A DNA stretch of 64,000 nucleotides, from assembly GCF_964204645.1 (NCBI RefSeq), contig NC_134029.1, positions 14,750,950-14,814,949 of the forward strand, in the 5' to 3' direction. Source of the DNA: Tubulanus polymorphus. Its lineage: Eukaryota > Animalia > Nemertea. A model generated the notes under the pieces. It saw nothing but the letters and a program-made list of their open reading frames with translations, searched no databases and had not been told where the DNA came from. Below, in pieces: positions 170-55,800 of the stretch (its first letter is position 1; each line of letters begins with the position of its first letter). Position numbers and translations under genes: made by a program.

Positions 170-550
170 ACCTGTTTTATTGGAACCTAGGCATATTTTG
201 TTACTATGATCAATTGCAAAGTTGTAGTTCATGACATGTTCTATGATTGTGGTGAGTTACAAGGTTATTGGGTTTTGAATATGGTCACCTGGGGGCGTTG
301 AATAGTAGAATAACTTAGTAATATCCATATTAAATGTGGAACGAGGCATATTATGTTATCACAATCAATTACAAAATCGTAGCTGCTGACATGTTCTTTG
401 ATTATGGTTAGTTTCAATGATTATGGTTAGTTTTAAGGTCATTGGTTTTTGTGTATGGTCACCAGGGGTCCTTGAATATTGAAATCGTTAGATTGTTGAG
501 CATTTGAAACCACTTCCCAAGTGGGCATGGTGTCCCTGGACCCCTAGTTT
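170..550 (+). mobile_element. HINE family A, 3' part
   Basis: ~150-bp internal subrepeats, ending TCCCAAGTGGGCATGGTGTCCCTGGACCCCTAGTT as in the copies ending at 32775 and 43521. Confidence 0.75.
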
Positions 551-1588: not shown

Positions 1589-1844
1589 GTTTGTACCCAG
1601 CCACTCAGTCTCCCAGATGGTGTTGAAGTTATCAAAGCAACTGAAGCAGCTGGTCATCTAAGCTCAGCTTCTATATATCCAGCATGCTTTGCACCATATC
1701 TGTTTGCAACAGCATGTTCCGATGGCTGCATTCGCTTTTGGAAATGCCACGTAATGGAATCTGATGGTTTTGATCCTAAATATGAATGGTTTGAATGGGA
1801 AATGATGATTCCCAGCTCAGATACTAGTGTTGTACATATTCCTG
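1589..1844 (+). CDS. DMXL2: DMXL exon (VCTQPL...VVHIP)
   Basis: Acceptor ttcag at 1588, donor G|gtaagt at 1844; WD40-region peptide. Confidence 0.9.
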
Positions 1845-7800: not shown

Positions 7801-10800
7801 AATATGTAACCCGTATTTAGATAGAATGAAGTAAGTTTTCTTTATAACTAAGAACCTTAATTTTCAGTAGAAATTGTCGATTTACATATGCTGATAATTT
7901 GGATATCGAAATTAGTAGTGATGGAAAATTTCAAATTGCTAGACAAATTTCGGCAAATTTATGATGTGTTTCTAACTTATCAGTTACTCATCCCACAACT
8001 CTACCATAAATCTCCCAGAAAGTTTGAATAATTGAAATTGACAAAACAATATCATGCAGGAAGATGCGTTAGGTAGTTAATTTTTTGGGATAATTCTCAA
8101 TCATTTCAAATACTCATATTTTTGATTTTTTAGGAAACAAATATGGTGTTTTAAAGCAAAAGCATTTGATTCAGCTTGACTGGGTGCCAATGGAAGATGG
8201 TTCTCATATTCTGACAGTTGGAGTAGGATCTAAAGTCATGATGTATGGACAAGTTTCGAAAGAAATTGCCCATGCTATGCAAAAAGGCCAACAAACCCAG
8301 TCACGACCCATGCTCCAGAAAAGTAAATCAATGACGGTTAAACATGCATCAGAAGAGATTTGTTGGATGAAACTTCGTTGTATTGACTTACAGACAGCTG
8401 ATGGTTTACCCCCATTACCAATGCATGTCTCATGGGTCAGAGATGGTATATTGGTAGTTGGAATGGATAATGAAATGCATGTTTATTCTCAATGGAGAAG
8501 TCATTCTGAAGGCTATGAAACGATTAGTGACAATGAGGAAAATGATAAGCGCAGTTTGACAGATTTCAATTTGTTGTCATCGTCAAACGCCACATTAACT
8601 ATGGCTAAAAAGAATTCCAGTTTCATTGGTTTAAAAACTTCTGCTTCATCATCTAGCTTATTGATGCTTGGCATTACTGAAACATCAATGAAAAGGAAGG
8701 ATAAAGATAGAGAGGGTATAAAAAAGTCTTCTTCGAATAGCGATAGTACAACCAGTCTTGGTTGGATTCAGGACTGTGGACTCTTTGAGGCCGCTAGAAT
8801 TGCAAACCCCGTTTTGCCCCAATATCATCCTAAACAACTATTAGAACTATTGAATTTCGGTAAAATTCGTCGCGTGAAGGGGATTCTTGCACATTTGGTC
8901 CGATGTATTTCTGGAAGTGGTGCAATAACGAAATCATCAAATCAGAACAAAACAAGGCGTATGTCATTTAGTGCTAAGTTCAGCCCAACTGACGCACAAC
9001 TGACGGAAGAAGTGCTAGATTATATTGAAATAAATTCCATTCCACCACTTCCTATTTATGCAATTCTCAGTGCCGATAATGATAGTTTCTGTCAGCAAGA
9101 TATCAAGGCAGCATCACCCTATTACCATTCAACAATGGCTATTGGAACAGACTATTCATCTTTGTTCAATACTCCTCATGACTATTCAGATGCATACCAG
9201 GACAGAGGAGATACTGAGGATGATAGTGTATTTGAAAAAACACATAAACTACTTTCATCTAGTTCTATGAATCCAAACTATTTTGGACCAGCGCAGGCAC
9301 ATCTATTATCTCGTCACTTGACGCACATGCAGCTTCCTGGTTTATCAAGTTTGGATCAGATGTATTTGCTTGCTCTTGCTGATACAGTTTCCAACACAAA
9401 ATCAGACTTTAGTGATCATTTTGCTCCAGACAGAGCTGTAAAAAATGGTAAGACTTCCAGATTTCCTGATGATATTTAATGATTTAGCAGGTTTGACTAC
9501 TTGTTTTGTAAGTAGTAGTCAGACCTTGATAAATCACTTTTATGAGGCCCATTTATATCTAGCATTCACTTTTCGTCAATTTGTTCTGATGGCTGTCCAT
9601 CCATAATAGGAATCAATTTATTTTCCAGAGAAGAAATTGACTCATTAGCTATCATGATGTTCTACTGTTGTTCATTATTGTCAAAATATGCACATTTTCT
9701 GATGGGTCTAAAGTGTCCTCTATATGGCCATATGTGATAGAGAAATCATTATATCCCTGCAACGAAGTGTATGGGGGTATGCTGGAGTCGGATTGTCCGT
9801 AGTCCGTCCATGGACACAATCTGGTCCGGACATCTCCTAAACTACTGGCTCTCATAACTTAACAGATATATTTGTCTGGATATGTAGTTTTGCATCTGCG
9901 CTTTATTTTGTAATTGGATCAAAAATGGCTGACTGGCGGCATATATGTTTTCTTGGATGCTAAATACATGAAAAAGAAGATACAAGCATAAACTTCTAAA
10001 TAAAGCAGATTTGATAATGAAAATGTCTGCAGATATGTTGTTAATGGAATGATAAGCCTCTGCACAGTTTTAAGGTCACGTGATGGCCACCGGGGTTGTT
10101 GAATACATGAAAAATTGATCACTTATGATCACTTTGTAAATAAAACATATTTCATTATGTCTCCCTGGTGGGAATTGGGGCACATGAGAATGGAGGATTG
10201 AAAATGGAGGTTGCGTCATGAAATATGGCAACCAGGGCAGCCATCTTGACTTTCTATTTTGCGCATTACAGCCTATAATTCTTGATGGATATTCATGAAA
10301 TTGAGTGAGTTGGTTTAGGTCTGTTGAAAATGGAAGTCATTGGCCATCGAATATGTCCATAGAATTTCAGCTCTCTCAGCACTCTTGATCGTTATTTTTT
10401 TTCATCATGCTTGTCATGTTTTTGCATCATTGATGCATTTATTGGTGTCTATTCAGCTGAGAGTCATAAAGAGCAAGGACATTGTATTTCAACATTTAGC
10501 AAGGGAACTGGTGGATATGCAGCATCTGGAGGAGTACCATCTGGAACTACTGGTGAGTCATGACTTCTTCTAGGGGCTCTTGGCCACTTTATAGTAGCTT
10601 TTTATCTCGGGCGAATGTTGTAACGGATCCAAAAAACGAATTTTACTTACAAATGATGTTGTAAATTTGACACAAAGTCATGCAATCCACTATATTTATG
10701 TGCAAAATGTAGCTTAATGCGCCTGAGATATAAAGATCCGTGGATCGCTTGCTAGCTTCTTAACTCTACCTTCACTTGTGACTCACAATGCAGACCTGTT

Positions 10801-22800: not shown

Positions 22801-25800
22801 CGATCATAACATTTGAAACCTTATAGGACCAAGCCACTCTAATCCCTCATCTCGTGTTCTTGTTTTGTCCAATTCCCAGTGTATGATATTAATCCATTCA
22901 AGCTGGCCAAACTGCAAGAAATATGTTTCCAACTGAAACATTTTCTAATTGTAGTGAAGATATCTTTTCAGTCTTTGAAAGTGGTCCTGCCCTACAATTC
23001 CACCCTGGATGACTGCATAATTCATATAAACTCCAATGCTATACTGCCATATATACTGCTATATATGCTACCCTGCCTGATTTTTAGGCCAGCCATAGGC
23101 TGAGCCTATTACTATACAAATGGAGCAAATTTTAATGACATGGTTTCCAGAGTAAAGGCTCTTTGACTGTGCAACTGAGCATATATTCATACAAATCATT
23201 CATTTAAGCATTATCCATTCTCCAACCCCCATGAAGCTGAATTTTGAAACTGGGCCTCGTTGAAATTTATATGAGCTTTTTCTGATTCTGAAAATCTGAT
23301 TGCAAAAATATCTGTTTTTAAAAAGCCAATCAGAAAGCAGACTCCTCTATGATTGGATCAGCAGGTGTTCACATGAACCTGCGGTATCGTCTACCGTTTT
23401 ACTTCCGGGTTTCATTTTAAAATCTAAAATTGTATTTCAATATCGATTTCTGTGAAATCTTTAGTTGATTTGGTTTTGGGAGGAATATTTTTATTTGCAC
23501 CACAGAAAATATCATTGACAATTGTGCAAAGTCCGGGAAAAATAGCTTTTTCTCAAATCGGATGGATGACCTTGATATGCTAATTAGCCATGAGCTAACT
23601 GTTTTTATTAATTTTATTCTGCAAAAAAATATCAAATCCAATTAAATTTTACTTTATTGAACAAGGTAAAACAGCGAATCCAATTAAATTTTGTTTTATG
23701 GAGCAAATTTCAGAAAATTCAATTTATTCCGCATTCAAATCAATAAGACCATGGGAAAAGTTTTATCTGAGGTATTTTACATGCCAGCTCCAGTCGCTGT
23801 CTGTGCTACTTATGAAAACACGATTGAATTGTGTAAATTATTAGCCTGGGATTGACTACTATGAGCTGGAAGTGTATTTGGACAAATTTAACCCACAGAA
23901 TGCATCATTCGCCATTTTGTGAAGAGCTGACAGGCTGGCGATAGTGCCCCTTGGGGCTCTTGTTGTTACAAAGATTATACACATATCTTTGAAAACGACA
24001 AAATTATACCGACATCCCAATATATCAACAATGACAATTGTACCGGAAACAATTGGGGCAAAAAATCTTGTTGCAACTCTGGTGTGAGAACTTTAAATGG
24101 CAGGTTATTGGGCAATAGTTGGTGACCGATTCATTTCAAACTTTGTACACAAGTAGGATATCACTTGGGCCAGAACCCTATTTAAAATTGGGTTGATTTG
24201 ATTCATATTCTGGCCACCAGGGGGCCGACATGAAAAACAACGTTAATAACCATTAAAGCTGCAATTGTTGACTGTTTTCAAACTTGGTACACAAGTAAGG
24301 TATCACTTGGCCCCGAATCCTATTTAAAATTGGATCAATTCGATTTGAGTAATGGCCACCAGGGGGCCTACATGAAAAATTAAGTTAATAGTTGACCGAT
24401 TAATTTAAAACTTGGTACACAAGTAGGGTATCACTTGGGCCAGAACCCTATTTAAAATTTGGTCGATTCGATTCAAATTATTACTAGAGGCTGCAATCGT
24501 TGACCGATTCAAATTAAGGCAATCAGGGGAAAACAGCCTAGAGGCTGTTACTGTTGATAAATTATTTACACTTTGTACATATATTCTCTAATATCATTCT
24601 TATAGAAATAATTGTGGCCATCCAGAAAAGGTGAAATAAACGTTTCCTAGTTCATTAGCCCACTTGGGACTTTAGTCCCAGCGGGCTATTGCGTTCACTG
24701 TTCGTCCGTCCGTCTGTAGACGGAATCCAGTTATTTTGTTAAGTTTTGAAGACGCTTCAATTTAATATCTTGATATTTGGGTTACACATGAACCTACACT
24801 AGACACACCTTCAGCCCAAAAACTGGCCCTGTCAGAATCAAGATGACCAACTGGCAGCCATTGTTGTCTGCCAGAATCGGCACTTTTTACACGTTTTTGA
24901 ACTTTTTGAGAGAGATTTTGATGCCTTGATCAATTACCTTAATCTTTTTTGTATATTTGAAACCCCATATACGTTTACATGTTTTATACCTGAGACAGGT
25001 ATTTTTGATCAGCCAATTATGACGCAATTGGCGGCCATCTTGGTGTCATTTGTACTCTTTCGTAGGTGGGAAAAAGTTTTTCGACATTATATTGATACCT
25101 AAGCATATTTTGTTACAACAATGAATTAGAAAGTTGTAGCTTATAACATGTTCTATGTTTGTGGTGAGTTTCAAGTTCATTGGTTTTTGTATATGGCCAC
25201 CAGGGGGCGTTGAATAATAAATATCTTAGTATTTCTATATTATATTTGTACCAATACATATTTTGTTACCACAATCAATTGCAGAGTTGTAGCTCATGAC
25301 ATTGTCTATGATTGTGGTGAGTTTTAAGGAAATAAGTTTTCTATATAGTCACCAGGGTTGAATAGTAGAATAACCTAGTATTTCCTTATTATATTGGTAC
25401 CTAGGCATATTTTGTTACCATGATCAATTGCAAAGTTGTAGTTCATGACATGTTCTATGATTGTAATTGTTCTATGATGACAAGGTTATTGGGTTTTGAA
25501 TATGGTCACCAGGGGGCGTTTAATAGTAGAATAACTTAGAATTTCATATTAAATTGGTAACGAGGCATATTTTGTTATCACAATCAATTACAAAATCGTA
25601 GCTGCTTTACATGCTCTATGATTGTGGTTAGTTTCAAGGTCATTGGTTTTTGGTTTACCTTTGTCAGTAGTATGAGCTTGGCATTGAGCCAATTCATGTA
25701 AAATCATGGTACGTTTTTTTATGTGAGCATTTTTTTCATTGGTTCTCGGGTTAAATGACGTATAATTGATGCGATTGAAGACATGATGAACCTCCATCCA

Positions 25801-28800
25801 TGACATGGTCAACTTTGTTAAGATTCGACAAAAACTGTCTTTGGCGGGAATAGTCTTAGCTCTCGCATATAAAATTGCAATGACCTCGATTAGGGGGGCG
25901 TCGTCTCTACGAGCGAATGTGATTGGCTATTTTTTGGATATACGGGGAATTCCTGCGCTACTAAAATAATTATAGGAAAGCCATTAATGGCGAACGTTTC
26001 ATTGGACTAGGTGCGTATATGTGCGAATCTTAAATGCTCATTGCTGGTGAGGATATAATTATTTCACATATCGCCATAGGTATTGTTTCGTTTTAATACC
26101 CGGTGATTGTATTGATAGAGATCGAAGTGAAGCGAATATTCACTACACAAGGCCTCCACGTGTGCGCGGGAGCGCTAACATTAGACTGTAGCACACACTA
26201 ACACATGCTCATACAGACTACCATGTCGTGTGACGCTGCTTGGCGCGTGCACGTTTGGTATGATAACAGGCTGAATAATCATCGTAGCATCGTAGCGCTG
26301 TGTTTTCTGTTTGATAGAATTGGTGATAAATTGTAATTTGTTGTGACCTGAAAATACTAAGCAGCAAACTATCTCATACTATGCCCCGGTGTTTTAGCTT
26401 CCGCGGCCATACATTGGAAGAGGTTTCGTTTCCAAGACTCAATAATTAGCCACCCTCTGATATGTGACATCATATGAATTTTATTTGAATATTTTTTCAT
26501 GTTGTGAAAAATATTTTTTTGAAAATATATAATAGTTTCCAATGCCGCGCCTACCTGAACCCTTCGAAATTTTGGACGTAGACCATAAACAAATATTTAT
26601 CTTTGGTTTTATTTGACTACAAAATAATTCTTGAAGAAAGATAAGTAATAGGGGTAATGGGCTTTCAAATCAAAGGTCGAACGGTCGAGCTCATAAAAAA
26701 TTTAAAATATGAAAATAATAACAATTTCTACTTGAATTAGTCGCGAAACTCATAAAAAATGAAAAATAATTCTCACACACTCAAATTTATTTTTCATTTT
26801 TGCTCGCTAGAAAAAAGTGCGAGTAAAGTGTGAGTGAAATAAATTCGAGTGTGTGAGAATTATTTTTCATTTTTTATGAGTTTCACTCCTAATTCACTCC
26901 TTATTCAAGTAGAAATTGTTATTATTTTCATATTTTTCATTTTTTATGAGCTCGACCATTCAACCTTTAACCTGAAAGCCCATTACCCCTATTACTCTTA
27001 AAATATTCATATACATGAATAAAATATATATGAATAACATATAAATTGATAGATTATTCAATATAAAAGTGTGAGTGAAATAATTCATATTTAAAACAGT
27101 GAATATTTATATTTGAATGAGTTTTAATAAAAGTTTTGTTATTAAAATGAAGACAGAAGAAGAACCCAACTTTAAAATCGAAATAAAAGAAACCAATAAA
27201 TCATTTTCATTATTTAACATTAAAAATTATATTTCAGCAACAAATTTAGTGTCCGCAAGGTATTATAAAATTGATGACATTGCTATGATTAATCAAATAT
27301 CATCAAATGAAACATATTTAATTACTGAACTAATTGATACTTTTGATAATGGAATAAAAAATCCTAAAATATTCAATACAGTTTTAAATTTTAAAGGAAC
27401 TTTAGATGAAAACATAATTAATATTCTTAAAACTCCTTTCAATGAAAGAAATGATGATATAATACTTACAAAAGATTACAATGATTTGATTAACTTAAGA
27501 ATTGAAAAAAGACAATTATATTATTTCAATTTTGATAATAAACAAATTATCTATAATGAAAATTCATCAAATATTGGAATTCAATGTGAATTAGATAATG
27601 AAAAATCATATAAAGATATTGCAGTTCAATGTAATTTAGATGATGAATTTAGAAAATTCAATCCTAATGAAAAAGTGCATTGTTATTGCGGAGGTAAATA
27701 CTTAAAATCACATAAATCAAAGCATTATGAAACAAACATAAAAACTGGCGTAAAGAGTAACAATTCTACGTTATAATTATTGAATTGAGTTAAATGATTT
27801 AAATATCTAATAGACTGTTGAAATGATAAATTGTTTGACAGTTGAAATGATAAATTGTTTGACAGTTGAAATGATAAATTGTTTGACAGTTGAAATGATA
27901 AATTGTTTGACAGTTGAAATGATAAATTGTTTGACAGCTGAAATGATAAATTGTTCCACAGTTGAAATGTTAAATTGTTCGACGGTTGAAATGATAAATT
28001 TTTTGACGGTTGAAATGATAAATTGTTTGACGGTTGAAATGGTAAATTGTTTGACGGTTGAAATGTTAAATTGTTTGACAGTTGAAATGTTAAATTGTTT
28101 GACAGTTGAAATGTTAAATTGTTTGACGGTTGAAATGATAAATTGTTTGACGGTTGAAATGATAAATTGTTTGACGGTTGAAATGATAAATTGTTTGACA
28201 GTTGAAATGATAAATTGTTTGGCAGTTGAAATGATAAATTGTTTGACAGTTGAAATGATAAATTGTTTGACAGTTGAAATGTTAAATTGTTTGGCTGTAA
28301 ATATAATTGTTATTTGATTTAATCATTTAAAAGTTTAATATTTTTAAAATGATTATGAAATATTTAATTAAAAACTAGCAAATAATTTATAAACTGTTTA
28401 ATTTTTCTCTTAAATAAATGGATGGTTTCATCCCAACTGGGAAAAGTGATTTGAAACATTATTTAGTAGCAGGCGGATTAATATTGGCTGCGCTTATCTT
28501 TTATTATGAAAATATCAGTAAGGATTTGATAAATGAAAATATAAAATTGAGCAAGAAATTAAAGAAGTTAAATGGAAACAATCACAGAAATAAAAAGAAT
28601 AAAAAAGTTAATGATTTAAATGATTTGGAGGATTAAAACAACATCTTTTAATTTAATTTATTCAATATATTTTGTCTATAAAAATGAGTGAAAATAAGGT
28701 ATTAGAAATATTACATCTAATATATAAAAATCAACAGAATATTAAATCAATTATTATGATTTCAGGTTTATTTTCATTCTCAGTTTATACTATAAAACAG

Positions 28801-31800
28801 TTGTTAGAATTCTATGATTGCTGTAAAATTAGATACACTGAATTAATAGAAAATATGAATTATATTTCAGATAGATTGAATAATATTAAATGCTGTGAAA
28901 TATGCAATAAAAGATATAAAAATAAAAAATCATTAAGGAATCACATGTATCTTCACGAACTTGATGAAAAATTATATGAATCAAAATAAGAAATCGACTG
29001 TTAAATTAGCTGAAAATATAAAATATATTAGTTGAAATGTATGAAAATGAGTAAATTATATTTATGTTAAAAAAGGAGGGTTGAGGTATCAATGTATTAA
29101 ATACGTATTAAATACGTACCAAATACGTATTAATGGTATTTAATACATTAATATGTATTTAATACATATTATGTTTTATTTCTGAAAATGAAGTAACAGA
29201 AGTAATTTATGTTTTAATTCATTCAAGTATGATATTTTAAATTCTTTACATTTGACTACGATAATACGAGAGTGATATTGGTTAGTTGGCTTATTCAATA
29301 AGAGAAACAATGAAATAATACAAGAGTGATACTAACAGTTAAAGTTATTGAATTTCTTGTTAAATCTATTTGAATTCTAGTCAATTCTTGTTAACCAATA
29401 GCGCCAATAGAAATCAAAAAGCTAGAATTCAAATAGATTTAACAAGAAATTCAATAACTTTAACTGTTAGTATCACTCTTGTATTATTTCATTGTTTCTC
29501 TTATTGAATAAGCCAACTAACTAATATCACTCTCGTATTATCCTAGTCAAATGTAAAGAATTTAAAATATCATACTTGAATGAATTAAAACATAAATTAC
29601 TTCTGAAGTATTACTTTTAAATACCATTAATACGTATTTGGTACGTATTTAATACGTATTTAATACATTGATACCTCAACCCTCCTTTTTTAACATAAAT
29701 ATAATTTACTCATTTTCATACATTTCAACTAATATATTTTTGTATTTTCAGCTAATTAAACAGTCGATTTCTTATTTTGATTCATATAATTTTTCATCAA
29801 GTTCGTGAAGATACATGTGATTCCTTAATGATTTTTTATTTTTATATCTTTTATTGCATATTTCACAGCATTTAATATTATTCAATCTATCTGAAATATA
29901 ATTCATATTTTCTATTAATTCAGTGTATCTAATTTTACAGCAATCATAGAATTCTAACAACTGTTTTATAGTATAAACTGAGAATGAAAATAAACCTGAA
30001 ATCATAATAATTGATTTAATATTCTGTTGATTTTTATATATTAGATGTAATATTTCTAATACCTTATTTTCACTCATTTTTATAGACAAAATATATTGAA
30101 TAAATTAAATTAAAAGATGTTGTTTTAATCCTCCAAATCATTTAAATCATTAACTTTTTTATTCTTTTTATTTCTGTGATTGTTTCCATTTAACTTCTTT
30201 AATTTCTTGCTCAATTTTATATTTTCATTTATCAAATCCTTACTGATATTTTCATAATAAAAGATAAGCGCAGCCAATATTAATCCGCCTGCTACTAAAT
30301 AATGTTTCAAATCACTTTTCCCAGTTGGGATGAAACCATCCATTTATTTAAGAGAAAAATTAAACAGTTTATTAAATATTTGCTAGTTTTTAATTAAATA
30401 TTTCATAATCATTTTAAAAATATTAAACTTTTAAATGATTAAATCAAATAACAATTAAATTTACAGCCAAACAATTTAACATTTCAACTGTCAAACAATT
30501 TATCATTTCAACCGTCAAACAATTTATCATTTCAACCGTCAAACAATTTATCATTTCAACCGTCAAACAATTTATCATTTCAACCGTCAAACAATTTAAC
30601 ATTTCATCCGTCAAACAATTTATCATTTCAACTGTCAAACAATTTATCATTTCAACTGTCAAACAATTTATCATTTCAACTGTCAAACAATTTAACATTT
30701 CAACTGTCAAACAATTTATCATTTCAACTGTCAAACAATTTATCATTTCAACAGTCGAACAATTTATCATTTCAACTGTCAAACAATTTATCATTTCAAC
30801 TGTCAAACAATTTATCATTTCAACTGTCAAACAATTTATTATTTCAACCGTCAAACAATTTAACATTTCAACCGTCAAACAATTTGTCATTTCAACCGTC
30901 AAACAATTTATCATTTCAACCGTCAAACAATTTATCATTTCAACTGTCAAACAATTTAACATTTCAACTGTCAAACAATTTATCATTTCAACTGTCAAAA
31001 AATTTATCATTTCAACAGTCGAACAATTTATCATTTCAACAGTCGAACAATTTATCATTTCAACTGCCATACAATTTATCATTTCAACTGTCGAACAATT
31101 TATCATTTCAACTGTCGAACAATTTATCATTTCAACTGTCAGACAATTTATCATTTCAACTGTCGAACAATTTATCTTTTCAACTGTCAAACAATTTATC
31201 ATTTCAACAGTCGAACAATTTATCATTTCAACAGTCGAACAATTTATCATTTCAACTGCCATACAATTTATCATTTCAACTGTCGAACAATTTATCATTT
31301 CAACTGTCGAACAATTTATCATTTCAACTGTCAGACAATTTATCATTTCAACTGTCGAACAATTTATCTTTTCAACTGTCAAACAATTTATCATTTCAAC
31401 TGTCAAACAATTTATCATTTCAACTGTCAAACAATTTATCATTTCAACTGTCAAACAATTTATCATTTCAACTGTCAAACAATTCATCATTTCAACTGTC
31501 AAACAATTTATCATTTCAACAGTCTATTAGATATTTAAATCATTTAACTCAATTCAATAATTATAACGTAGAATTGTTACTCTTTACGCCAGTTTTTATG
31601 TTTAATTGTTTCATAATGCTTTGATTTATGTGATTTTAAGTATTTACCTCCGCAATAACAATGCACTTTTTCATTAGGATTGAATTTTCTAAATTCATCA
31701 TCTAAATTACATTGAACTGCAATATCTTTATATGATTTTTCATTATCTAATTCACATTGAATTGCAATATTTGATGAATTTTCATTATAGATAATTTGTT

Positions 31801-34800
31801 TATTATCAAAATTGAAATAATATAATTGTCTTTTTTCAATTCTTAAGTTAATCAAATCATTGTAATCTTTTGAAAGTATTATATCATCATTTCTTTCATT
31901 GAAAGGAGTTTTAAGAATATTAATTATGTTTTCATCTAAAGTTCCTTTAAAATTTAAAACTGTATTGAATATTTTAGGATTTTTTATTCCATTATCAAAA
32001 GTATCAATTAGTTCAGTAATTAAATATGTTTCATTTGATGATATTTGATTAATCATAGTAATGTCATCAATTTTATAATACCTTGCGGACACTAAATTTG
32101 TTGCTGAAGTATAATTTTTAATGTTAAATAATGAAAATGATTTATTGGTTTCTTTTATTTCGATTTTAAAGTTGGGTTCTTCTTCTTCTGTCTTCATTTT
32201 AATAACAAAACTTTTATTAAAACTCATTCAAATATAAATATTCACTGTTTTAAATATGAATTATTTCACTCACACTTTTATATTGAATAATCTATCAATT
32301 TATATGTTATTCATATATATTTTATTCATGTATATGAATATTTTAAGAGTAATAGGGGTAATGGGCTTAATGTGCGAGTAAAGTGTGAGTGAAATAAATT
32401 CGAGTGTGTGAGAATTATTTTTCATTTTTTATGAGTTTCACTCCTAATTCACTCCTTATTCAAGTAGAAATTGTTATTATTTTCATATTTTTCATTTTTT
32501 ATGAGCTCGACCGTTCGACCTTTGATTTGAAAGCCCATTACCCCTATTACTAAGATACAATATGAACTTCTAGAACTTTGAATGCACGAATTAAAAAGAT
32601 TTTTCAAGCAATGCCCTTAGTCCAAACAACCTCTAGCTTTCAAGGTAAACCACACTTTGCCCATGGGCAATTTATTGTATATGGTCACCAGGGGGCGTCG
32701 AATATTGAAATTGTTAGATTGTTGAGCATTTGAAACCACTTCCCATGTGGGCATGGTGTCCCTGGACCCCTAGTTTTTGTTTAAAATCACTCCGTAGTCT
32801 TTGTTTCTGGTCGTAGAGTCTTATAACTGGTCTAGGAAAGGACGCTTAAAACTCAAACTGCTTGCGTTTACAGTCCTTAATTACGTGCTCCCAGTCCGAA
32901 ACAGTTGACCATTGGTTTTTATGGTCTAAAATGATATAGGCGTCGTCGCTAGTAAAAATCCTGTTGTTCACCGAAAAACACGTGGGGCCAGTTGCTCAAA
33001 GATTGGTTAAGGGAATACCCCGAGTTCACATGTAGTAGGCTAGAGACAGCAGTATACACACAGCGAACTGGCGGCTGCATCCCGCCTCGTATAAACACAG
33101 ACCAACTGAGATTGACTGATGAAGAATAAACTGCCAAGACGAACGCTTAAGTTGTGAAGCCCAAAGGGGGAAATTTCAAGGATTTTTGGAGCCATTTTAA
33201 GTGCATTCTAAAGTTATCATGTGGTCTTTGCAGTAATTAAAACTACCACTTAGTACCACTTGGGCCTATCACATGAACTTCATTTATTCATTGAAGCATC
33301 ACATATACAGTTAACACAGTTTCATTGGCTTAGGTATTATGGAAAATAGGGTGGGAAGGATCTGTGTGGGCGATTACACTATGCTTTGTAGGGAAGGTAG
33401 ATATGGCCTATGCGCTATTACTATTACACTACATCGTCAGCCACGCATTTTATTATTGAAAGAGATCGTTACATTGAAATAAACGAAAATAAAACAACTA
33501 TAATGTCTTCAGAGAACAAATTATCAATTTATTTTCACAATATCCTCGAAAATTTGACCACTTTTGGTTTGGGGAAAACGTCATTTTTAACGGTAAAAAC
33601 AGCCTTGCAGAAACCATGGAAACGTGAATTTGTTTTCAATGAAAAAACTGACATCTCATGCATCCATTCACCACTATTCAGTCAATTTTAAATACTGTCT
33701 TTGACCATATGGACCTTAAAGTACTTTTATTGTATATGGTTACCAAGGGCGTTGAATTCCTGATCGACTTATATATTTTTATTTCATTTCACGTCATTTA
33801 AAAGTCCATTTTGTTATCGCACATGAAACTTTCTTGCTTTGGTACAAAATAACTTCCAAACGAGGCTTAGTTTCTCTTCGGTACTTTTGAAACATTCAAT
33901 GCAGTAATAAAAACTCCAACCCTATTGAATATATATATTCACTTTATTTATTTATTTTTTGGAACTAAATTTCGTTTCGGAAGAACACATGCCCTTTTAT
34001 GTATATTCATGCTTCACACACGTGCCTGACACATATAGGCCTACTTGCTGCTATGTGTGTAGTATTGATCTGTGCATGTGTGTGAAAAGCGCACCTTGCA
34101 TGTGGCCTAGTTACAGTTTTCCTGAAAACTGCAAATGATTCAACTGCCAGGGTTCGTCGTAACTGGCCGTGAAAAGCAGTGAATTTTATAGAAGGGCAGT
34201 AAAACTGGGAACTTGGAAATTGTTCAATTTACGAAAATAAATTGTCTAAAAAACTTCGTACACAGTGTATAGTAATCGTCAAACCATGAACATGGGGAGT
34301 GTCTATTTGAGTCAGTGGGGAAAACCTGTTACCATATTCATGATGAATCGTCATGCAGTTGTGTGTGATTGAGATCGTATCAATAGACAGATTTTCATGA
34401 AAACTTCTGGATTCAATCAAGGGGGGCATCTTAGGCTTTTTAGCCCACTTGGGACTTTAGTCCCAGCGGGCTATTGCGTTCACTTTTCGTCCATTGTCCG
34501 TCCATAGGGAATGTTGTCCGTAGATGGAATCCAGTTATTTTGGGAAGTTGGGTCTTGATATTTGGTTTATACATGTATATACCCTAGACGCATCTTCAGC
34601 CCAAAAACTGGCCCGGTCAGATTCAAGATGGCTGACTGGAAGCCATTGTTGTTTGCCAAAATCACTCAGACTCAAGATGGCTGACCTTTTTTTTTTGCCA
34701 AAAATGTCAATTTTGGCCTGAATCCTGAGTCCTGTAGCTGCCTGCTGGTTTGTCATCAGTTATTCTATATGGTCACCAGGGGGCGTTCAATAGTAGAATA

Positions 34801-37800: not shown

Positions 37801-40800
37801 TTCAAAAATAGTAAGTCGTGCGAGTGACGATATACAGTCATTCGGGTAGCACGGTGCGCAGCGCACAACGTTCACTTATTTAGGGGTTCGACCTCTACTG
37901 CTTGAGATGCTGATTGTTAGTGAAATGTGGATGTGCCGCATTGGAAATAGACATTACTTTCAAAATATGGTGATCGTTCATGGGCTCAAGATCGCTCTAA
38001 GTTTTCTTGTGGAAGAACCCCTAAACCCCCCGGGGGTTGCTTCGCGCCTTCAGTGCTCGCTAGGTGGGGCAGATGTATAACTTTTTATTTTCAGGATTTT
38101 TCTTCTATGGTGACTTACCTTGAATGAAACAAATTTTTAAGGTGAAAAGTTCAAATACACGCAAAAACCAGATAGAATATATCTAAATACTAAGCTTATG
38201 ACAAACATATGAATATATAGAAATTCACAATGAAAAAGTCAGATCTCACATACAAATGATAACCAACCGGACATAAATTGTCCATACACTTATTTTCGAT
38301 CTCATTATCTGTAAAAAGTCATCCAAAAAAAGTCTCCCATCGTTTGAATTCAATTCAATAGTTTTCACTATTTTTCATTTGTTCTGCTTATAATCTCTAA
38401 TCTAGAGTACCAATGTTTAATTTTGATGCTGATTTAACATACATTCATGTAAATTAAGGAAAGTCCATATTAAGAATTTCGTTTGTTTTATTTTTTATTG
38501 GTACCTAGGCATATTTTGTAACCACTATCGGGTGCAAATTGTTGCTTGTGGCTTGTTCTATGATTGTGGTGAGTTTCAATGTTATTGCTCTCCTACTGTG
38601 TTCACCAGAGGCATTAAAGTTTCTGATTGTTGACCATTTCAAGCCACTTCCCAAGTAGGCATTGTGTCCTTGGACCCCTAGTTTTTTTTTTAGACTGAAT
38701 ATACTTATGATTGTGGTTATCAGTGTAGTTAGTCGCTTGGACAGTAAAAGCTGCAAACATTATAATAAATCCCTTGATTATTTTTAGGTAGCCAAGACAG
38801 CATTCAACCACAAGAAAGACCCTTTGGATGCAGCAATCTATTTTTTGGCAATGAAAAAGAAAAACTTATTATGGGGATTATTTAGATCAATTGGTGACAT
38901 CAAGATGATGGAATTCTTTAAGAACAACTTTGCCGAGGATCGATGGCGTAGGGCAGCATTGAAGAATGCATTTGCGTTGCTTGGAAAACAAAGATTTGAG
39001 CATGCTGCAGCTTTTTTTTTGTTGGCTGGTTCAGTTAGGGATGCTGTAGAGGTATGTATAGCTAGCTCTCTAGAAATGTATGTTGCCAATGGATTGTTTT
39101 TCCAAGATATTTCCATCATCACAAAAAGAAATATTTTAGATGTGTATTTACCCTAACATGAGAATTCCAAGGAGTTATCTTGTTTTGATGTTTTTACATT
39201 TTTCTTATTTGTAGGTTTGTCTGAACAAAATTGAAGATATCCAGTTAGCAATCGTTATTGCACGTTTGTATGAGAATGATTTGGAAGAAAGTATGCCAGC
39301 CAACTTAAGGCGTATTCTCAGAGAAGAGGTTCTTGGGTTCAATGTCAACGGTGAAACCAGTTCAAACAAAGCTAATACTGATCCATTCCTTCGCAGTATG
39401 TGCTTTTGGATGCTGAATGATTATCAAAATGCCTTAAGTACTCTTCTACATACTAACACGGGACAAAACTGCTTCCTCGAATCAGGCCACGAAGAGGAAA
39501 TTCAATCATATTCATCTCCAAATGTTTTCAATTTCTATGTTTATCTCAGATCGCACCCTTTACTTTTACGTCAGAATTTGGCTATGTCTGCTCAAGATAA
39601 GAAGAAACATGTGTTGTTATCTGGATTTACACAAGGAGGTCACTCATCATCTTTAGATCAACATGTTACTTATGTTGACAAAATCACTCCTCTTGAACGT
39701 AGATTGTACTTTACTACAGCCCATTCTCATTTCAAAGCTGGATGTCCAATGCTTGCATTGGAGGTGTTAACTAAATTACCTGATGTGATTTGTGTGGAAC
39801 CTACTGAGGTGATGAATAATACTTTGCTGAAATCGAACTCAAGTAATTTGATAACTTCTGGTATAATAACGGATACAATGCTTTCCAGTCAGCATGTGAA
39901 ATCAACCAGCAAAAGCAAGCCAGATCATGCACTTGATATTGACTGGGGCAAGACATCAACATCTATTCATTCAATGAATATTCAGCATGATACTATTAGC
40001 AGCAATATTGATATCGATGATGAATTAACAGATAGTGATAACAACTCTAAACCACACAGTTCGATTCCAGTGAAAAGTGTTGATATTATGGCACAGCAAT
40101 TAAAGTATATAGCATGTATGAAGATAGTCATGGAAGAAATGAGTACTTTAGCTACCGGTTTTGAAGTTGATGGAGGTCAATTGAGGTATCAACTGTATAT
40201 CTGGTTGGAGCGTGAAATGGAATGTCTCAATAACCTTTGCAATTTCATGCAGTTAGAAGAAATGTTTAAGACTGATTCAGGTAGGAAACTGAAAACATTT
40301 TATGACCATATAGAATATTCAGAACTTGCTCCATTAACACATTGTTCTAGTTTAGATCATAAAAGATTTCATGCATTAATAATGCACAACCCATTAGTTC
40401 ATGGGTCGTATCAATTGGTTATTTATACATTTTCATGCAGATTTCAAAACGGATTTCCTGGAAGAAAACTATGGTAATTCAAACACCAAATCCTCAAGTT
40501 GGGATAACACCCTCTCGAAACCATCTCTTCATGAAGTCATTCAAGCTGAGAAAATGGATTTGGAAGCTAAGTTGGATCGCATAGCACGTCGGAGATTGTG
40601 GTTAAAGGCAAACCAACAGGATTTACGAACTTTATTAAGCTATTGTAGCTTACAAGGTGCTGCCGGGGGAGGAATTGCATCAGTTCGAATGGAATTGATC
40701 CTCCTGTTACAGGAATTACAACAGGAAAAGACGCAACAGCAACTTCTATCACCACTTCCATTCCCTACAACTTTGCCGATGCTTTCAGCTAGTATTGCGC

Positions 40801-46800: not shown

Positions 46801-49800
46801 CCGCTGAGCAATAAATTCATAAAATTGACTGAATTTATTGTGAAAAAGAGAGGGAATAATTCAATAACTGTTCTTCAAGAAGAAGAGAGATATGTCGGAA
46901 AGAAAACACAACATGGCTACTAATTGAACGGGACCAAATTTCCGATGTTTATGGCTCGACAGTGCTTTTATAACATGGATTGATCAAAATTCCCATGCAG
47001 TATCTGGAGATTGTAGTGAGCTGATGGATATCATACGGATTGTATCGGCAACAGCGGTGAGCTAAGAAAGCCTTTGCACTTTTAACAAAAACTTTGTGGA
47101 AAAGGGAAAAACCCTAAATATAGCTGCAGAGCAGCGATAACGGATTTTCTGCACAGCCTTATTCGTACTCTTGGTCTTGTCTGGGTACTGTGTCGACCAC
47201 GATCGCGTATATGCTGATGCAGCCGCACCATGCTATTGGAATTGATGGGAATTTAGAATCCTGTTCAACGGTCAATACTGTTTATTTTATATAAGGAAGG
47301 TCTACAAACAGTCAATAAGGCGCTACTTGGAAGCATGGATGACTGGACCAGATGGTTATTTGACTCTCGAAAATCGACTATTAGGCCTTATAGTCTTTAT
47401 GGATTCCGAAAAAGCATTTGATTAGGTACTACATCAGCGATTACTAAACAAGGTATTATTAGGAAACGGTATCAATGATGGGCCGCTTAAATGGGCTCAG
47501 CAGTTTTCTTTAATCGAAAACTGCTGGCCGAAATCAACGAAACTCACATCTTGGAAATCGAAAACTGCTGGCCGAAATCAACGAAACTCACATCTTGGAA
47601 ATAAGTACAGATGTAATTAGTGGAGTCACGCAAGCTAGTATCCTACTGTGTCTTCTCTTCACTGTCCTGATAAATGATTTACAGGTTAATCCGAAATGTT
47701 CAGGACCGAGTAAATTTCCAAAACGACCTTAACAAGTTGTGTCCCCTACATGGTCAGAAGCATGGAAGATGAGCTTCAACCTAAAAAGACATAATATGGA
47801 TATTGGATACAATGAAAACCCAGGTTCATGTGATAACTCACTCGTGAGAAGATTGTGTTTTTCGAATGAAAAATACTCATCATAACTAAATGACTATTCA
47901 GTTCCACGAAAATTGTTCTTTGGAATGAAAAACGCTTCGATCGAACTATATACTTGTTGAAAACAACGAAAACAATACTGTTTGATCAAACAATATACTT
48001 TTTGTTTGAACGGAAAACTTTTCGTTCTTCCAAAAAAATTTCTTTGAACAAAAAACTATGTGATGGATCGAATGAAAAACTTTTTGTGCAGACAAAAGAA
48101 ATTGTTGAGCAAAAAACAATTTAGTTTGAATTATTTTTTCAAAAAGCTTTGTTCGAATGAAATCAATCTGAAAAGGCATAAAATGAATATTGGATACAAA
48201 GAAAACCCTGGTTCTATACCTATGAATTCAATTGAAAAGATTATTTTGTTCGAATGAAGGTTACTGTTACCGCTTTACTACTGTTACCGTTTTACTAAAA
48301 TTGTATTTTAAGATCGATTTCTGTGAAAGCTTTAGTTGATTTGGTATTTCCTTCAGGATACATTACGTGGGGCACATATTAGAAGTTACCTTAGCTTGGG
48401 AACTATACCGCTAAACATTTTTTTGGAATACCCGGCACCGTACGGTGGCGCCGCCACGAGCCATGTGACTCTTCCTTAATTTCTTCCTTAGCGCCGCCAT
48501 TTTTGGTGCGTTTTTTCCCAGGGAGCTGGCGCTTAGATGTAATTCTGAGCAGGACCAAGCTAGCACCTCCGGTTCTTCGGTGAGTTCGTTCCCATAAGTC
48601 TCACCATTCAGATACATCGATAAATTTGATCAGATTTTATTCACGGCCGGAGCGTCAGCTCCGTCCACGTGTTTCCTTCCTCTTGTTCTACGAGTAGTCC
48701 GAGTTCATCTGACTAACCGCATATAATAGATTTGATCTAAGAAGATATTGATTAGGAGAAATACATTAATTTTTTTCTAATAATCAATTTAATATGAAAT
48801 CACATATGAAATATAACATGGCCGCCTGGGTCAGTCTGGTGTTGAGTTAGCTCCTGGTATTTCATGAGTTTAGCCATTTTCTTGTGGTGGTAGTGAGAAA
48901 AAAACATGACTGGATATACTGTGTATTCATGATGGTTATGTACATTGAGTCATTAAAGTGCGCGAAATGGATTTTTAGCTATTTATGTGGTTTTTTCTTT
49001 GAAATTACACCTGAATTTGTGGATATTCAGTGTCACTGGCTTTATAACTGACACCTGACAACTGCTCACTCAACTCAACTGCTCACTCACCTCAACTGCT
49101 CACTCACTTGACACATCAGAGATCGTTCTATCAAGGAATTATCTTGAAGCAAACTGTTATTACTGATCTTTTGTGTAGCAAGGGAGCTGTTGGGAGCAAT
49201 CGTTCTGGCAATGCCTACTCTGTCGACAGTACTAATAGTGGTATTCATCAAGAAATTAGTGAAATTCAACAAGAAAAACTAAATGAACAAGAACAACGAG
49301 AACAACCAGATATTCAACCAGATATTCATCCTACTAATGCGAACACTACTGATAATGATTTAGATAGAGAAGTCTTCACCGATCCTGAGAGTTCTAGTGG
49401 TTCTCGCCACTCAAAGAGGGCTCCTCCAACTAAAAAACGCAAAGAAAGAAGTTCAACGATCGATGATTTAGAACCGGAGAGCACCTCAAAACTGTTCAAT
49501 ATGATGCGCGAAATGGCAGAAAAAATTGACTCCCTTGCAAACATGAAACAAGACATACTGGATACTTTAAATGTACGGCTCGATAGTCACACTAAAATGA
49601 TCCATAATTTGATGCATCGTACTGAAGAGAGACTATATGACCTGGAACAATCGACTAAAGCCAAAATTACTGAAATTACAGATCTGAAGTCCCAACACAC
49701 ACGTGATGTTGCTGAATTAAAACGTGAAAAAAAAGCAACAAAAAAGCCAATTGAACGACTTCAAACGATATGCTATTGAAAATAACCAATACTCGAGAAG

Positions 49801-52800
49801 GAATCACTTAGTAGTCTATGGAATACCCGAGAAACCGGACGAAAATTGTACTAATTTAATTGTCGAAACACTGAATAATAAACTATCGTTGGAAACACCA
49901 AATAAAATCTCTAATGATGATATTGAAGTGTCCCATAGACTCCGTAGTAGGGCCCCTCAAGTTGATGACGGTGAGAAAAAAAACCCGGATGGCATAATAA
50001 TTTGTTTTGTGAACCGAGGTGTGAGGGACTTTATTATTAGAAAGCGCACATTATTGAAAAACACAAAGATAGTGATCAAGGAGGACTTATGCAGAGAAAT
50101 TGTAATGCTCGTAAATCGCGCGGTTAAATCGGACCTATACACAAATGTCTGGACTGTGAATGGTAAGGTGATCGCGTTGACAAAGGATGGTAACAAAAAG
50201 CGCCTTCAACTTTACGAACCATTACCAATATAAACTTTGTATTCACAAATTCTTATTATATATATGTAATTGTGAGTAACTATTAATAAGTTACTTTTCA
50301 TGTATTATCTTGTGTGTGTGTGTGCGTGTGCGAGATTCCTTGTGAACTAATTACCGCACATTTAATTTAACTATTACAATTTAGAATAATTTCGTAAGGA
50401 TGTAACTTATACTATTATATCAATTATCTATCAAACACCATGTTGCGGTGTTTTATTTTTGTGCATATTTTTTTCATTACAAACTCTCCCTTTATTGTGC
50501 ATGTTTGGACAACTTCTCGTAAGGATGAGCATATAAGTCTGAATGTAAGAATTAATCAACTTTTCCTTGTATGTAAGGGTATACGTAAATGTTATAAATG
50601 TATTATTCTTCTCATATTTTGTGTTTACATTAGATTTATACTTCAACACCTAGAAAGTGTTAATATTATTTCAAATAAGTATATGATTAATTTGATCTCT
50701 AGTAATGAATTTAGAGGAAAATAATGTGTTCGATGGTAATTGTAGTTATTACCAAGTAGATTCATTGAACAATATACCAATTGGTTATAATTTTTCTCTG
50801 CTCCATGTAAATATGAGGAGTTGTAACAAAAATTTTGAGCATTTTTACACCGCTTACAAATCTTTCAATTGTAAGTTTGATATTATTGGCTTTTCCGAAA
50901 CGTGGACCTCCGATTTAGAAGATAATTCATCCATGTATAATATTGATGGTTTTACAAGTAAATTCCTAAGTAGAAAGTGCAAAGGAGGTGGAGGCGTTGC
51001 TCTATATATCAAGAATGATATTTCTTTTCATACTGATAACCAGTTAGATATACAATTTGACAGTTTTGAACACCTTTTTATTGAACTATCTAATAATGTA
51101 TGTATTGGAGTGGTATATAGGACAGGTAGTGGTTTGAACGATTTTAATAGAGATTTAGATTTACTGTTATCAAAACTCACTGAAAATAAGAGATATTTTA
51201 TCATGGGTGATTTTAATATTGATCTATCGCATTCATCTTCCCATTTACCTACTACTAAATTTGTTGACTCCATGATGTCAAATTCTCTTTTTCCCCTAAT
51301 TGATGTTCCTACTCGTGTTACTGATACTTCAGCAACTATTATTGACAATATATTTACAAATGCCTACCTTAATCACAATCTAAGTTCTGGTGCTATTATT
51401 TGGAACATAACAGATCATTTTCCGATCTTCACTTGTTTGAACTTATCTCAATTTGAACGAAATGCTAATTATAAAGCAAAACCCAAATATTTTTCTTATC
51501 GCGAAATAAATGCTAGAAATGTTAATATTTTTAGAAGGAAACTATTGATATCTGACTGGCATTGTATAACGTCCTTGACTGATGCATCAGTTGCATATTC
51601 AGAATTCTTTCGTATTTTTAAGAATTTATATGATGATTGTATACCTATTGTTAAAAAGAAATATTCTAAATTTAAAGCTGGTTCGCATTTATGGATGACT
51701 AGAGGATTGTTGAAATCACTGAAACATAAAGAACAATTATATAAACGTTATGTTACTCAACGAACTCAATCATCAAAAGCACGCTTCACCTCCTTCAGAA
51801 ACTTGTATAATAGGCTTATCATCCAAGCAAAAAGAAATCATTTTATTCATAAATTTGATCGAGCCGGTAATAACAGTAAATACACTTGGAAAGTTATAAA
51901 GGAATTACTAAATAGAAATTCTGATAAGAACATATATCCAGATGATTTTAAAATCAATAATAAACTAATCTCAGATCCTGATGTAATTGCCAAATCTTTC
52001 AATGTCTATTTCGTAAATGTTGGACCAAATCTAGCTAATTGTATTCCTAAGCAATCAGAAAGTTTTGAAAAATTCATGAATCCTCAGCTTGATCATAATT
52101 TATTTCTAAATCCAATTCTACCTCACGAAATAGAATTAATTGTCAGAAACTTTAAATTGAAAAATGATTGTGGTTTTGATGACATTAACCACAAAGTATT
52201 GAAAAGCGTAATTGATACTATTTCTAGTTCACTAGCGCATATTTTCAATCTTTGTTTTTCTGAAGGTACCTTCCCAGATGAGCTTAAAATAGCTCAAATT
52301 TTTCCATTGTATAAATCAGGGGATAAACAAATTGTTAGTAATTATCGTCCAATCTCTATACTTCCATGTATTTCTAAGATTCTAGAAAAACTACTACATA
52401 GCCGCTTAGTTAAATACCTCAAATTGCATGACGTTCTAACTAATTCTCAATTTGGATTTAGAGAGGGGTACTCAACTGCTATGGCAATTAATGTAATTAC
52501 ATCTGCTTTAATCAATAACTTGGATAACAACAAACACTCAATTGGTATTTACTTAGACCTTTCGCGAGCATTTGATACTTTAGATCATAAAATTCTCCTA
52601 GCTAGATTGAATAATTATGGCTTTCGCGGAGTTGTACTAAAATTATTTTCCAGCTATCTTGAAAACCGATTTCAAGTTGTGAAATTCAAAAATCATATTT
52701 CATCTCCGCAAAAGTTAACATGTGGAGTTCCGCAAGGTTCAATTTTAGGTCCTATACTTTTTCTTTTATATATTAATGACTGTATCAACAGTTCAAAATT

Positions 52801-55800
52801 ATTTCAGTTCATAATGTTTGCAGATGATACTAATGCCTTCATGTCTCACAAAGATTTAAAATCTCTAGAATTTCTGGTCAATAGGGAATTATCAAATTTA
52901 GATCATTATGATAGTATGATGAATTTGGAGTAGTAAATATCCTGTGGATCGGTAAAGTAAAATGATGAAGAAAATGGGTAATTGTTAAAATCACTGTTTG
53001 AGGACCGCAGCTGAATGTGAAGTCTTGCAGCAATAAATTTGTTTATTTATACTTGAATTGATAATCGAAGTGACAAGCAGCCTGCGGAGGATTTCAGGAT
53101 GAAGACTCTGAAAAATATGTCACCTCATTGAATGGGGCTCAATTTTCGATGTGGAGGCCCGACAGTGCTTTTGTAACATAGATTCATCAAAATACGCACA
53201 GAATATTTGTTGATTGAAATGAGCTGAATGATATCATACGGATTATATCGGCAACAGCGGCAAGGTAAAAAAGCCTATATTCTTTTAGTAAAAATTGTGT
53301 GGAATGAAATAACAATAATAAGAAACATGCTATTATTAATAGGGTTTTCTGTGAAGTACGGGTAACAGGAATAATCACCCGAATCTCAATAGGGTTTTCT
53401 GTGAAGAAACAGAAAACCCTAATAAAGCTAGCATTATCGTCTCCATTACTTTGCCATTTTTCATGTGTTTGAATTTTCATAACGGGTCATTGTGAAGTCA
53501 GAAAAATGTAGCTTGTATCTCATATCCTGTCAATTACAAACCACAACAGAAATTTTCAGTAATTTTCTGCCTGGTCTGTATAGACCTATATTAGAATAAA
53601 AAATTGATGTACAGGAACACTGCCAGCCATTAATTTAGGGGATATAAAGTGAGGAACTACTGTGAACTTCTGATTTTTTTTCTGCTGCCAGCCAAGGCCT
53701 TTCAAAAAGAGATGACTGAATCAAATTGTGGGCATCATTTGACATTGAATTGAGATGGAATTATTTCAATATTTTTTTACTGAGGATTAGGATAATCTTG
53801 GCCTTAGTACAATGACCCAGTGATATACTGTGCCCATATCAGTGGTTAATGGATGTTAGTGGATTTTGGCGGTATGTAGAGAGAATCCCACAATTATAAC
53901 GAAAAAGTCAGAAAATGAGACTTCGAGATAGTAGTAAAAAGACAAACTAGTGGGCACTTAAATTAAAACAATGGTGAATACAAGTTGAGAGACTAAAATA
54001 GGACAATGGTTTTTCACAATGGTTTTTTTTTTTTACAATGGTTTTTCACCCCATAATAAACTTATATCTAAATTCCTCTGTAAACTGGTTAAACTCAACA
54101 CTTGATTCCCCTTTGATTATTTGTTTTTTTGCTCTCTCATCTATTTTAGTCTCTCAACTTGTATTCACCATTGTTTTAATTTAAGTGCCCACTAGTTTGT
54201 CTTTCATACATAACGATGAAACTTTTAATATTAAAAATAAAAGTTCAACTTTAATAAAAGTTCAATAGACAATAAAAATTATTTTTTTATCATAATAATA
54301 TTATTCACATCATTATTAATATTATTACTATACATTCTCATCAATAACGAAAATTGTTTTCTTATCATTATAACATTCACGTCATGATTATTTTTACATT
54401 TCTATCATATTCTATAATTTTATATTTACTTCAAAGATATTTCATACATTCTCATCAATAACAATTATTTTCTTATCATCATAATATTCATATTATTATC
54501 TATACATTTCTATCATGTTCTATCATATTTATTTTATTACGGTGCTTGTGTGGTCACCTTATTGGTGATTACAATTGGACGAATCAGAAAATTCACATCT
54601 GGTCATACTTGACTCTGGACATTGACAACTAGGGGACCGAACATCGGAAAATCTTTTAACAAATCATCGTATCCTTTATTGAAACGTTCAGCGAACTGAA
54701 AATATCATATACATTCATTCTATTTATTTATTTTTTTTATGCGAGTCACGTCGCTAAATAGCGTATTAGATCTAGAGCTCAATCCAGTGAGTTTCCAGTC
54801 GGCTCCGGTCGGTTTCCAGTCGGCTCCAGTCGGTATTTAGTAGGGGCATTTTGTATAATGTACTCCTTGCACCCCAGAGAGGAAACGGTGCACCCCATAA
54901 GTAGGTCACCCCACAATGAAAATAACCTAGTGGTACCAGCTTGGCAGTATTGATCGATCAAATATTTTGTACATTGGATTTCCCTCAGATTGCACGTTTC
55001 CAGAAAGTTGAGGTAAATACAATTCAAGTCTCAATGGACTCTTCTGTTTGACAACAACTTGTTGACAATTGAACTGTTGTGATTTTTCGAAAATATCAAG
55101 AAGAAGGTCGATTTTGAGCTAATGAAATATGTTTCATTCAGCCACCTATCTTCAGAAGTTCAGAATCCTCGGGCTGTTGGCAAATTTCAAATCTTTACGG
55201 GTTGTTTTTGGTTTGTATCCAAGTTAAGCTCGGGTTTATCGTCCTCGTGCAGTTTTCTGGGTACATGTTTTACGTTTATTGAATATGCTTTAAGGCTTTT
55301 GCCTGCATACAATTTTTGGTAGCCTTAAACACTGCCTGGTGCTTGGCTAATCCTTCTAAAATGTGCCCCACGTAACGTATCCTGAAAGAAATATCATAAT
55401 TTTCCGGAGTAAAATTTGTATTTCTGAGGGATACTTAGAGTGTATTTTGACCCTTATCGCGTGATAAAACTAGTATTTTTCATTTTATACTGCAATTAGA
55501 TGGAAATATTCCGGTTTATAGTCATATTTTCTCGTTTTAAAGAGCAAATGCTTTCAAAATAGAATATTGTGTAAAAGTCAATTTCAAATGTGGTGTATTC
55601 ACAAATATCAAATATGCTACTGGTATGAATTTTAGTTCAGCCATTACTGAAAAATACGACTTTTAAATCGGCAATTCCAGCACATGCTCACTGTTATCGT
55701 TTATGTAAGCAGGTGCGTGTTTCTGACGTCATCTCTGACAAACCCTCGCGGCTTCCAGTCATTTCACTAGACATTTCATGCAATATTTTAGCTAAGGCCA

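Follow-up and report, generated by a model that had tools for sequence, protein, structure and literature searches.

A stretch of 64,000 nucleotides from the forward strand of the Tubulanus polymorphus genome (assembly GCF_964204645.1, contig NC_134029.1, positions 14,750,950 to 14,814,949), referred to here as the window and providing all coordinates given below, contains at positions 26644 to 32551 an inserted element of 5908 base pairs (bp). The element is a non-autonomous member of a hitherto undescribed, multi-copy mobile family that carries genes. It is built of two long inverted arms around a 41-bp centre, and this centre is most likely a repair scar. The explanation that we prefer, at a confidence that comes close to an even chance without reaching it, is that the element derives from a longer, non-autonomous parent with long arms and is a rare copy, shortened by the loss of the middle and probably mobilized in trans by the integrase of a Polinton/Maverick element.

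The initial annotation described inverted arms of about 2.7 and 3.1 kb, a 41-bp spacer and AGT...ACT termini, and all of these are present in the sequence. The left arm occupies 26644 to 29380 on the plus strand (2737 bp) and the right arm 29422 to 32551 on the minus strand (3130 bp). The spacer between them, at 29381 to 29421, is unpaired and has no predicted structure (fold of 0.0 kcal/mol). No strand is assigned to the element as a whole, to the spacer, to the terminal units or to the left flank repeat described below. The outermost 58 bp, at 26644 to 26701 on the plus strand, form a perfect inverted pair with 32494 to 32551 and are common to a second end type or family. As had been claimed, the element is richer in AT than its surroundings, with a GC content of 23.6% versus 37.1% and 37.4% in the 10 kb on either side. 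No second copy of it was found within the window. When the tandem arrays and terminal units are excluded, the comparison of the arms covers 1832 matched bases and shows 13 substitutions and 5 gap events, and the perfect mirror extends only 100 bp outward from the spacer. The three small open reading frames (ORFs) and the 24-bp tandem array that were attributed to each arm were located in both. The left array, at 27813 to 28293 on the plus strand, has 20 units, and the right array, at 30468 to 31524 on the minus strand, has 44, with an internal block duplication; 5 unit types are common to both arms, 5 occur in the left array only and 10 in the right array only. The array regions (27823 to 28317 and 30444 to 31514) are also open in the sense frame of the genes, for 164 and 356 amino acids with an 8-residue repeat, and in antisense frames. 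At 29087 to 29170, 11-bp repeats form a short self-complementary patch, whose right-arm version is shorter by 13 and 29 bp.

Membership in a mobile family was assessed with public sequencing runs deposited under the same species label, of which 10 were listed and 4 covered part of the stretch. From run X5, which consists of raw reads of a sample different from that used for the assembly, 1934 million letters, approximately 12 in 100 of the run, were mapped on two stretches; reads with less than 90% identity were left uncounted, and the variant tables hold the best 40 of 528 and the best 40 of 257 rows. At the left terminus, 1382 reads exit before 26644 into mixed flanks, which fixes the start of the element at that position, and because these flanks disagree with one another (agreement of 0.34) they indicate many insertion sites. 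Empty sites, in which the left flank is joined to sequence like that of the right flank, are shown by 800 reads. These results demonstrate that the element belongs to a mobile family, as originally proposed. The 58-bp outer repeat is carried by 880 reads that then diverge at 26700 into another interior, and this second interior may represent the parent's opposite end, a sister family or the helper itself. Read depth fell inward from approximately 2000 at the end to 200 to 320 over ORF1, 47 to 143 over ORF2 and ORF3, and 40 to 65 near the centre. For an assumed genome size of 300 to 3000 Mb, this corresponds to approximately 310 to 3100 ends, 44 to 440 copies of ORF1 and 9 to 93 copies of the region near the centre.

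We compared the assembled palindrome with what a fold-back assembly artefact should look like. Such a chimera would repeat the left arm together with the left flank, but the right flank is instead the continuation seen in the empty paralogous sites. Five of the 13 sites at which the arms differ were tabulated, and at all five the right-arm letter was found in most reads (225 of 230, 246 of 260, 76 of 81, 37 of 38 and 41 of 41), so the right arm exists in its own right and was not generated by copying the left one. The element lies between exons, in an intron of a host gene with a Rav1p_C domain, which we take to be DMXL/Rabconnectin-3. Exons of this gene at 8094 to 9476, 38788 to 39153 and 39215 to 40474, all on the plus strand, flank the element in order, and their matches to Rav1p_C profile positions 71 to 250, 400 to 498 and 494 to 604 run collinear across it. 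Divergence between the arms and the collinearity of the host gene make such an artefact unlikely.

The same reads indicate that the join at the centre is rare. Depth was 65 over the spacer versus 40 to 58 in the adjoining arm, 14.6 over 29412 to 29450, a value accounted for by the last ten bases of the spacer, and 0 over 29451 to 29460. At 29421, 40 reads leave into one other sequence with an agreement of 0.89, and one contig of run X1 does likewise. None of these 40 informative reads carried the palindromic join, so that it is present in at most approximately 7% of the copies at that position, and no strand-changing joint was found among the seven listed between 28320 and 29460. The suggestion that a family shares this layout and this spacer was therefore not upheld. 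Since the reads cross the spacer into other DNA at an even depth, the spacer is ordinary family interior. Base pairing at the join is limited to 2 of 8 facing positions, which, together with the lack of a spacer fold, leaves nothing to prime a turn there. Tail-to-tail transgene junctions mostly bear asymmetric deletions, according to the portion of PMC8701086 consulted, and an asymmetric deletion at such a junction leaves just such an unpaired remnant beside a blunt join. Both arms carry letters that are in the minority among the reads, for example at 28357 (80 of 83 reads differ) and 29268 (39 of 39 differ), which indicates that the arms are of one lineage. The number of reads expected to span the centre at a single locus was 0.4 to 3.9 for genomes of 3000 to 300 Mb, and none was seen, which is thus uninformative. 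Contigs were dropped as a test of the join, where a unitig crossing it would be shorter than 40 bases.

The two ends of the element are not equivalent. The left terminal hairpin unit (26644 to 26996) is 353 bp long and 81% self-complementary, with an inner copy of the terminus at its end and a predicted fold of -133.1 kcal/mol, computed without a shuffle control. The right unit (32348 to 32551) is 204 bp long and consists of a short inner terminus followed by a 97% direct copy of 26814 to 26996 with an outer-type end. Because this direct copy corresponds to the inner half of the left unit, the right end does not simply mirror the left but is flipped in part and lacks approximately 150 bp. These terminal units had escaped the initial annotation.

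The element is bordered by AAGATA at 26638 to 26643 and at 32552 to 32557, both on the plus strand, and the chance of a 6-bp match at the composition of the flanks is 3.6e-4. Whether this repeat is a target-site duplication is uncertain. The insertion target at 25700 to 26643 is a separate high-copy repeat with a depth of approximately 250 to 2200, from most of whose read copies the left flank differs at many positions, and no further copy of the insertion site was found elsewhere in the window. Paralogs of this repeat show the empty site, and in them (800 reads, with three contig runs in agreement) the flanks are 5 bases further apart than a 6-bp duplication predicts, only 1 base short of both flanks summed. 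Two histories are of similar likelihood: a loss of 5 bases from the flank, which is favored by the short tandem sequence there, or one substitution that mimics 6 bp after a 1-bp duplication, or equally after a TAA duplication with ends of the form GT...AC, a reading in which TAA fits the locus. A fixed TTA/TAA target is disfavored, since it predicts approximately 900 reads loose at 26642, which are not among the six best-supported rows. The 6-bp duplication reported earlier is thus exact as letters and doubtful in origin, and the claim that it identifies the integrase is weaker than was stated, because the empty-site reads fit a 1-bp duplication about equally well.

Each of the three ORFs is present once per arm. 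ORF1 lies at 27117 to 27776 on the plus strand (219 amino acids, with a C-terminal CxC...H zinc-finger-like stretch) and at 31577 to 32227 on the minus strand (216 amino acids), and when the two copies are compared, the left one shows a frameshift near 27733. ORF2 (72 amino acids; 28418 to 28636, plus, and 30125 to 30343, minus) encodes identical proteins in the two arms, with one hydrophobic stretch that by eye may be a membrane helix and with no Pfam family at the cut-off. ORF3 (101 amino acids; 28684 to 28989, plus, and 29772 to 30077, minus) also encodes identical proteins, with a single C2H2 zinc finger at residues 70 to 91 that matched Pfam zf-C2H2_4 with an E value of 1.9e-4, under the curated cut-off. 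The Atlas neighbors of ORF3, at a score of 0.92, are giant-virus and archaeal clusters with few features in common, giant-virus clusters making up 3 of the 4 best rows, and the best Atlas score for ORF1 was 0.85, with recognition under threshold; we treat these as leads only. In a search of 1.84 billion proteins, ORF1 matched nothing beyond its zinc-finger stretch, the last 40 residues, which was found in two proteins, one of them with a GIY-YIG domain. For ORF1, comparison with 162 candidates of near length and 829 longer ones yielded no full-length homolog at threshold, and neither did comparison with 2 candidates for ORF3, shorter forms lying outside these searches; none of the candidate stretches in viral contigs was confirmed (0 of 18 for ORF1 and 0 of 13 for ORF3). 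A single-sequence structure prediction for ORF1 was unusable, with a predicted local distance difference test score of 36.8. Within ORF1, a 45-bp repeat at 27553 to 27647 encodes two similar IQC/VQC stretches, which resemble dynein light-chain binding motifs of viral proteins.

Variants among the copies were used to look for signs of selection on the three ORFs. Of the 31 variant letters listed, which come from the best-supported rows only and some of which are linked, 12, 2 and 17 fell at codon positions 1, 2 and 3, a deficit at the second position with p = 0.0005. Silent variants numbered 13 of 31 versus approximately 18% expected under uniform change (p = 0.01 against an expectation of 0.22 and p = 0.11 against 0.30), and no variant created a stop. 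Because the variants shun second codon positions, these data suggest that the three ORFs are genuine genes under selection. No Polinton core gene was present in the element, which holds only ORFs of 72 to 219 amino acids and the array frames and has no such Pfam match, confirming the corresponding statement of the initial annotation.

Its fallback proposal, that of an element whose interior was lost, provided the best fit to these observations. Other copies run past 29421, and the join is blunt. The parent would have had inverted arms of more than 2.8 kb, either as a larger palindrome or in the form of very long terminal repeats. It would have broken in or close to the middle, and repair by end joining would have deleted unequal lengths on the two sides, so that 41 bp of a single arm lost their partner and became the spacer. 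With both of its ends intact, the unit would have been, or might still be, a substrate for the integrase of the helper, and afterward the arms would have diverged by approximately 0.7% while the arrays changed in length. A longer palindromic parent is favored over an asymmetric one because the arrays and end units differ more than those of a fresh copy should. The helper that would supply the integrase in trans is probably a Polinton/Maverick, judging from the AGT...ACT ends, the possible 6-bp duplication, the low GC content and the virus-like zinc-finger ORFs. Vertebrate members of that group, as described in the available part of PMC8097293, are 12.7 to 24.6 kb long, with terminal repeats of 46 to 1447 bp and ends of (AGT)2//(ACT)2 or (AG)3//(CT)3. 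The element resembles them in its long terminal inverted repeats (58 bp perfect, arms of 2.7 to 3.1 kb), in the small intronless ORFs beside its ends and in being flanked here by an exact 6-bp repeat. Its AGTAAT...ATTACT ends match 5 of the 6 bases of (AGT)2, a motif taken from the vertebrate elements (PMC8097293, same portion), and to that extent they resemble Polinton ends. It differs from them in that its arms hold genes and arrays, its hairpin ends have a second, inner terminus and its 6-bp duplication is unconfirmed, the paralogs being 5 bases too long. With a length of 5.9 kb and none of the eight core genes named in that part of PMC8097293, among them those for a protein-primed polymerase, an integrase, an ATPase, a protease and capsids, it is not an autonomous Polinton.

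Several observations weigh against a Polinton-mobilized, longer palindromic parent. The reads cannot separate such a parent from an asymmetric one whose left end was copied once, as the two give equal depth, and the inward fall in depth may partly stem from divergence, given the 90% identity limit on counted reads. The centre of this particular copy is spanned by zero reads or contigs, and a simple mirror parent cannot yield the direct copy in the right terminal unit without a flip. The element ends in AGTAAT rather than AGTAGT, and its flanks require either a 5-bp deletion for a 6-bp duplication or one substitution for a 1-bp duplication. A scan of viral contigs gave no match to the end motif, and neither a helper nor a second full copy was seen, though no whole-genome search for them was made. 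In metagenome contigs, 15 loci matched the 18-base end motif; their alignments were at most 37 bases long, except for one of 46 bases at 76% identity with an E value of 0.48, and were deemed to be due to chance.

Among the competing explanations, a snap-back event is unlikely. It would have involved a self-replicating asymmetric Polinton or satellite whose polymerase turned at 29421 and recopied the left end, giving a molecule with two left ends that was integrated once. This would account for the minority letters common to both arms and for the 880 or so reads with the same 58-bp end and another interior, which are similar in number to those with the present interior, as expected for a parent with two unlike ends. 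Snap-back genomes are moreover described as a major class of adeno-associated virus defective particles in the portion of PMC8235507 consulted, and they too carry one genome end twice in mirror image. The element departs from these in being integrated, in the divergence between its arms and in a join that lacks a self-priming hairpin; nor is there microhomology from which copying could have been primed. The arms are also too different for a fresh copy (20 versus 44 units, 5 of 20 unit types in common and unlike terminal units), and none of the seven listed joints changes strand. The initial proposal of a snap-back genome is thus weakened by the nature of the join and retains the shared minority letters in its favor. 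An error of assembly at the centre, where a fold-back read may have been chimeric or the two sides of a longer element wrongly joined, is very improbable: the join is absent from all mapped reads and contigs, but the short reach of the perfect mirror, the dominance of right-arm letters at every tabulated site, the expected continuation in the right flank and the ordered host exons all argue against it. The least probable explanation is that this very palindrome and spacer define a small, young family, which would be scarce in or absent from the sampled reads. Only part of a single run from another sample was examined, and both arms bear letters that are minor in that sample, but the absence of the join from all 40 informative reads places the ceiling mentioned above on its frequency.

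A composite or foldback origin by cut-and-paste transposition is unlikely to nearly the same degree as a snap-back event. Here the hairpin ends would resemble those of miniature inverted-repeat elements and belong to a DDE transposon (Kolobok- or Harbinger-like) that makes a short duplication, two copies or arms would have been joined tail to tail, and the 6-bp repeat would be a coincidence. Foldback elements such as Drosophila FB and sea urchin TU have long non-coding inverted arms with unequal tandem arrays, may have a short centre and are flanked by 8- to 9-bp duplications. The element is like them in the unequal arrays of its arms and unlike them in the ORFs there and in lacking an 8- to 9-bp flanking repeat. 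The fact that the empty paralogs are just 1 base shorter than the combined flanks favors cut-and-paste, as do the sevenfold excess, approximately, of ends over ORF1 in depth and the internal deletions in the terminal unit. KolobokP elements, in the part of PMC9587614 available, have terminal direct repeats of approximately 450 or 660 bp, inverted ends of 11 to 18 bp and duplications of 3 to 5 bp. Shared with them are end units that have their own pair of termini, ends of the form RR...YY, a right unit that is partly a direct repeat, and terminal units that exceed the interiors in number (PMC9587614, same part). The units of the element, however, are 353 and 204 bp long and near-whole palindromes, its interior is a mirror, and it has neither the DDD/E transposase nor the His-Me nuclease described for autonomous copies in that part of PMC9587614. 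Its AGT...ACT outer ends are without TTAA, and the flanks permit a 6-bp or a 1-bp repeat but not the TTAA of classical Kolobok elements. PIF/Harbinger elements duplicate TTA/TAA, as stated in the portion of PMC3014272 consulted, and the approximately 900 reads that such a target predicts at 26642 were not among the six best-supported rows. In addition, intronless, AT-rich zinc-finger ORFs resemble viral genes more than transposon genes, as far as the Atlas leads go.

Two other repeats were seen in the window. At 2387 to 3858, a 589-bp inverted pair (99% identical) is separated by a 294-bp spacer and codes for the last part of a GIY-YIG domain; it resembles a Penelope-type retroelement end with an inverted repeat. 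At 49048 to 52933, ORFs of 243, 170 and 745 amino acids resemble, by eye, a retroelement of the long interspersed nuclear element type with an endonuclease and a reverse transcriptase.

Non-autonomous dependants of Polintons have barely been described. A survey of anole Polintons reports, in the portion of PMC3014272 at hand, that they are apparently absent, and no description of palindromic non-autonomous Polintons was found in the literature covered, with most subscription papers and Repbase outside its scope. A seemingly perfect 6-bp duplication within a repeat, such as the one found here, can be checked against the empty paralogs of that repeat. If the parent is a gene-carrying palindromic satellite, its ends alone would suffice for mobilization, and the family would offer a route to study how Polinton ends are copied. 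It is possible, though doubtful, that the parent family consists of giant palindromic Polinton satellites that keep several selected genes in both arms and have hairpin ends with a flippable second, inner terminus. If so, they would be integrated sub-viral replicons that ride an endogenous DNA virus and that shrink by deletion of their centre yet remain mobile.

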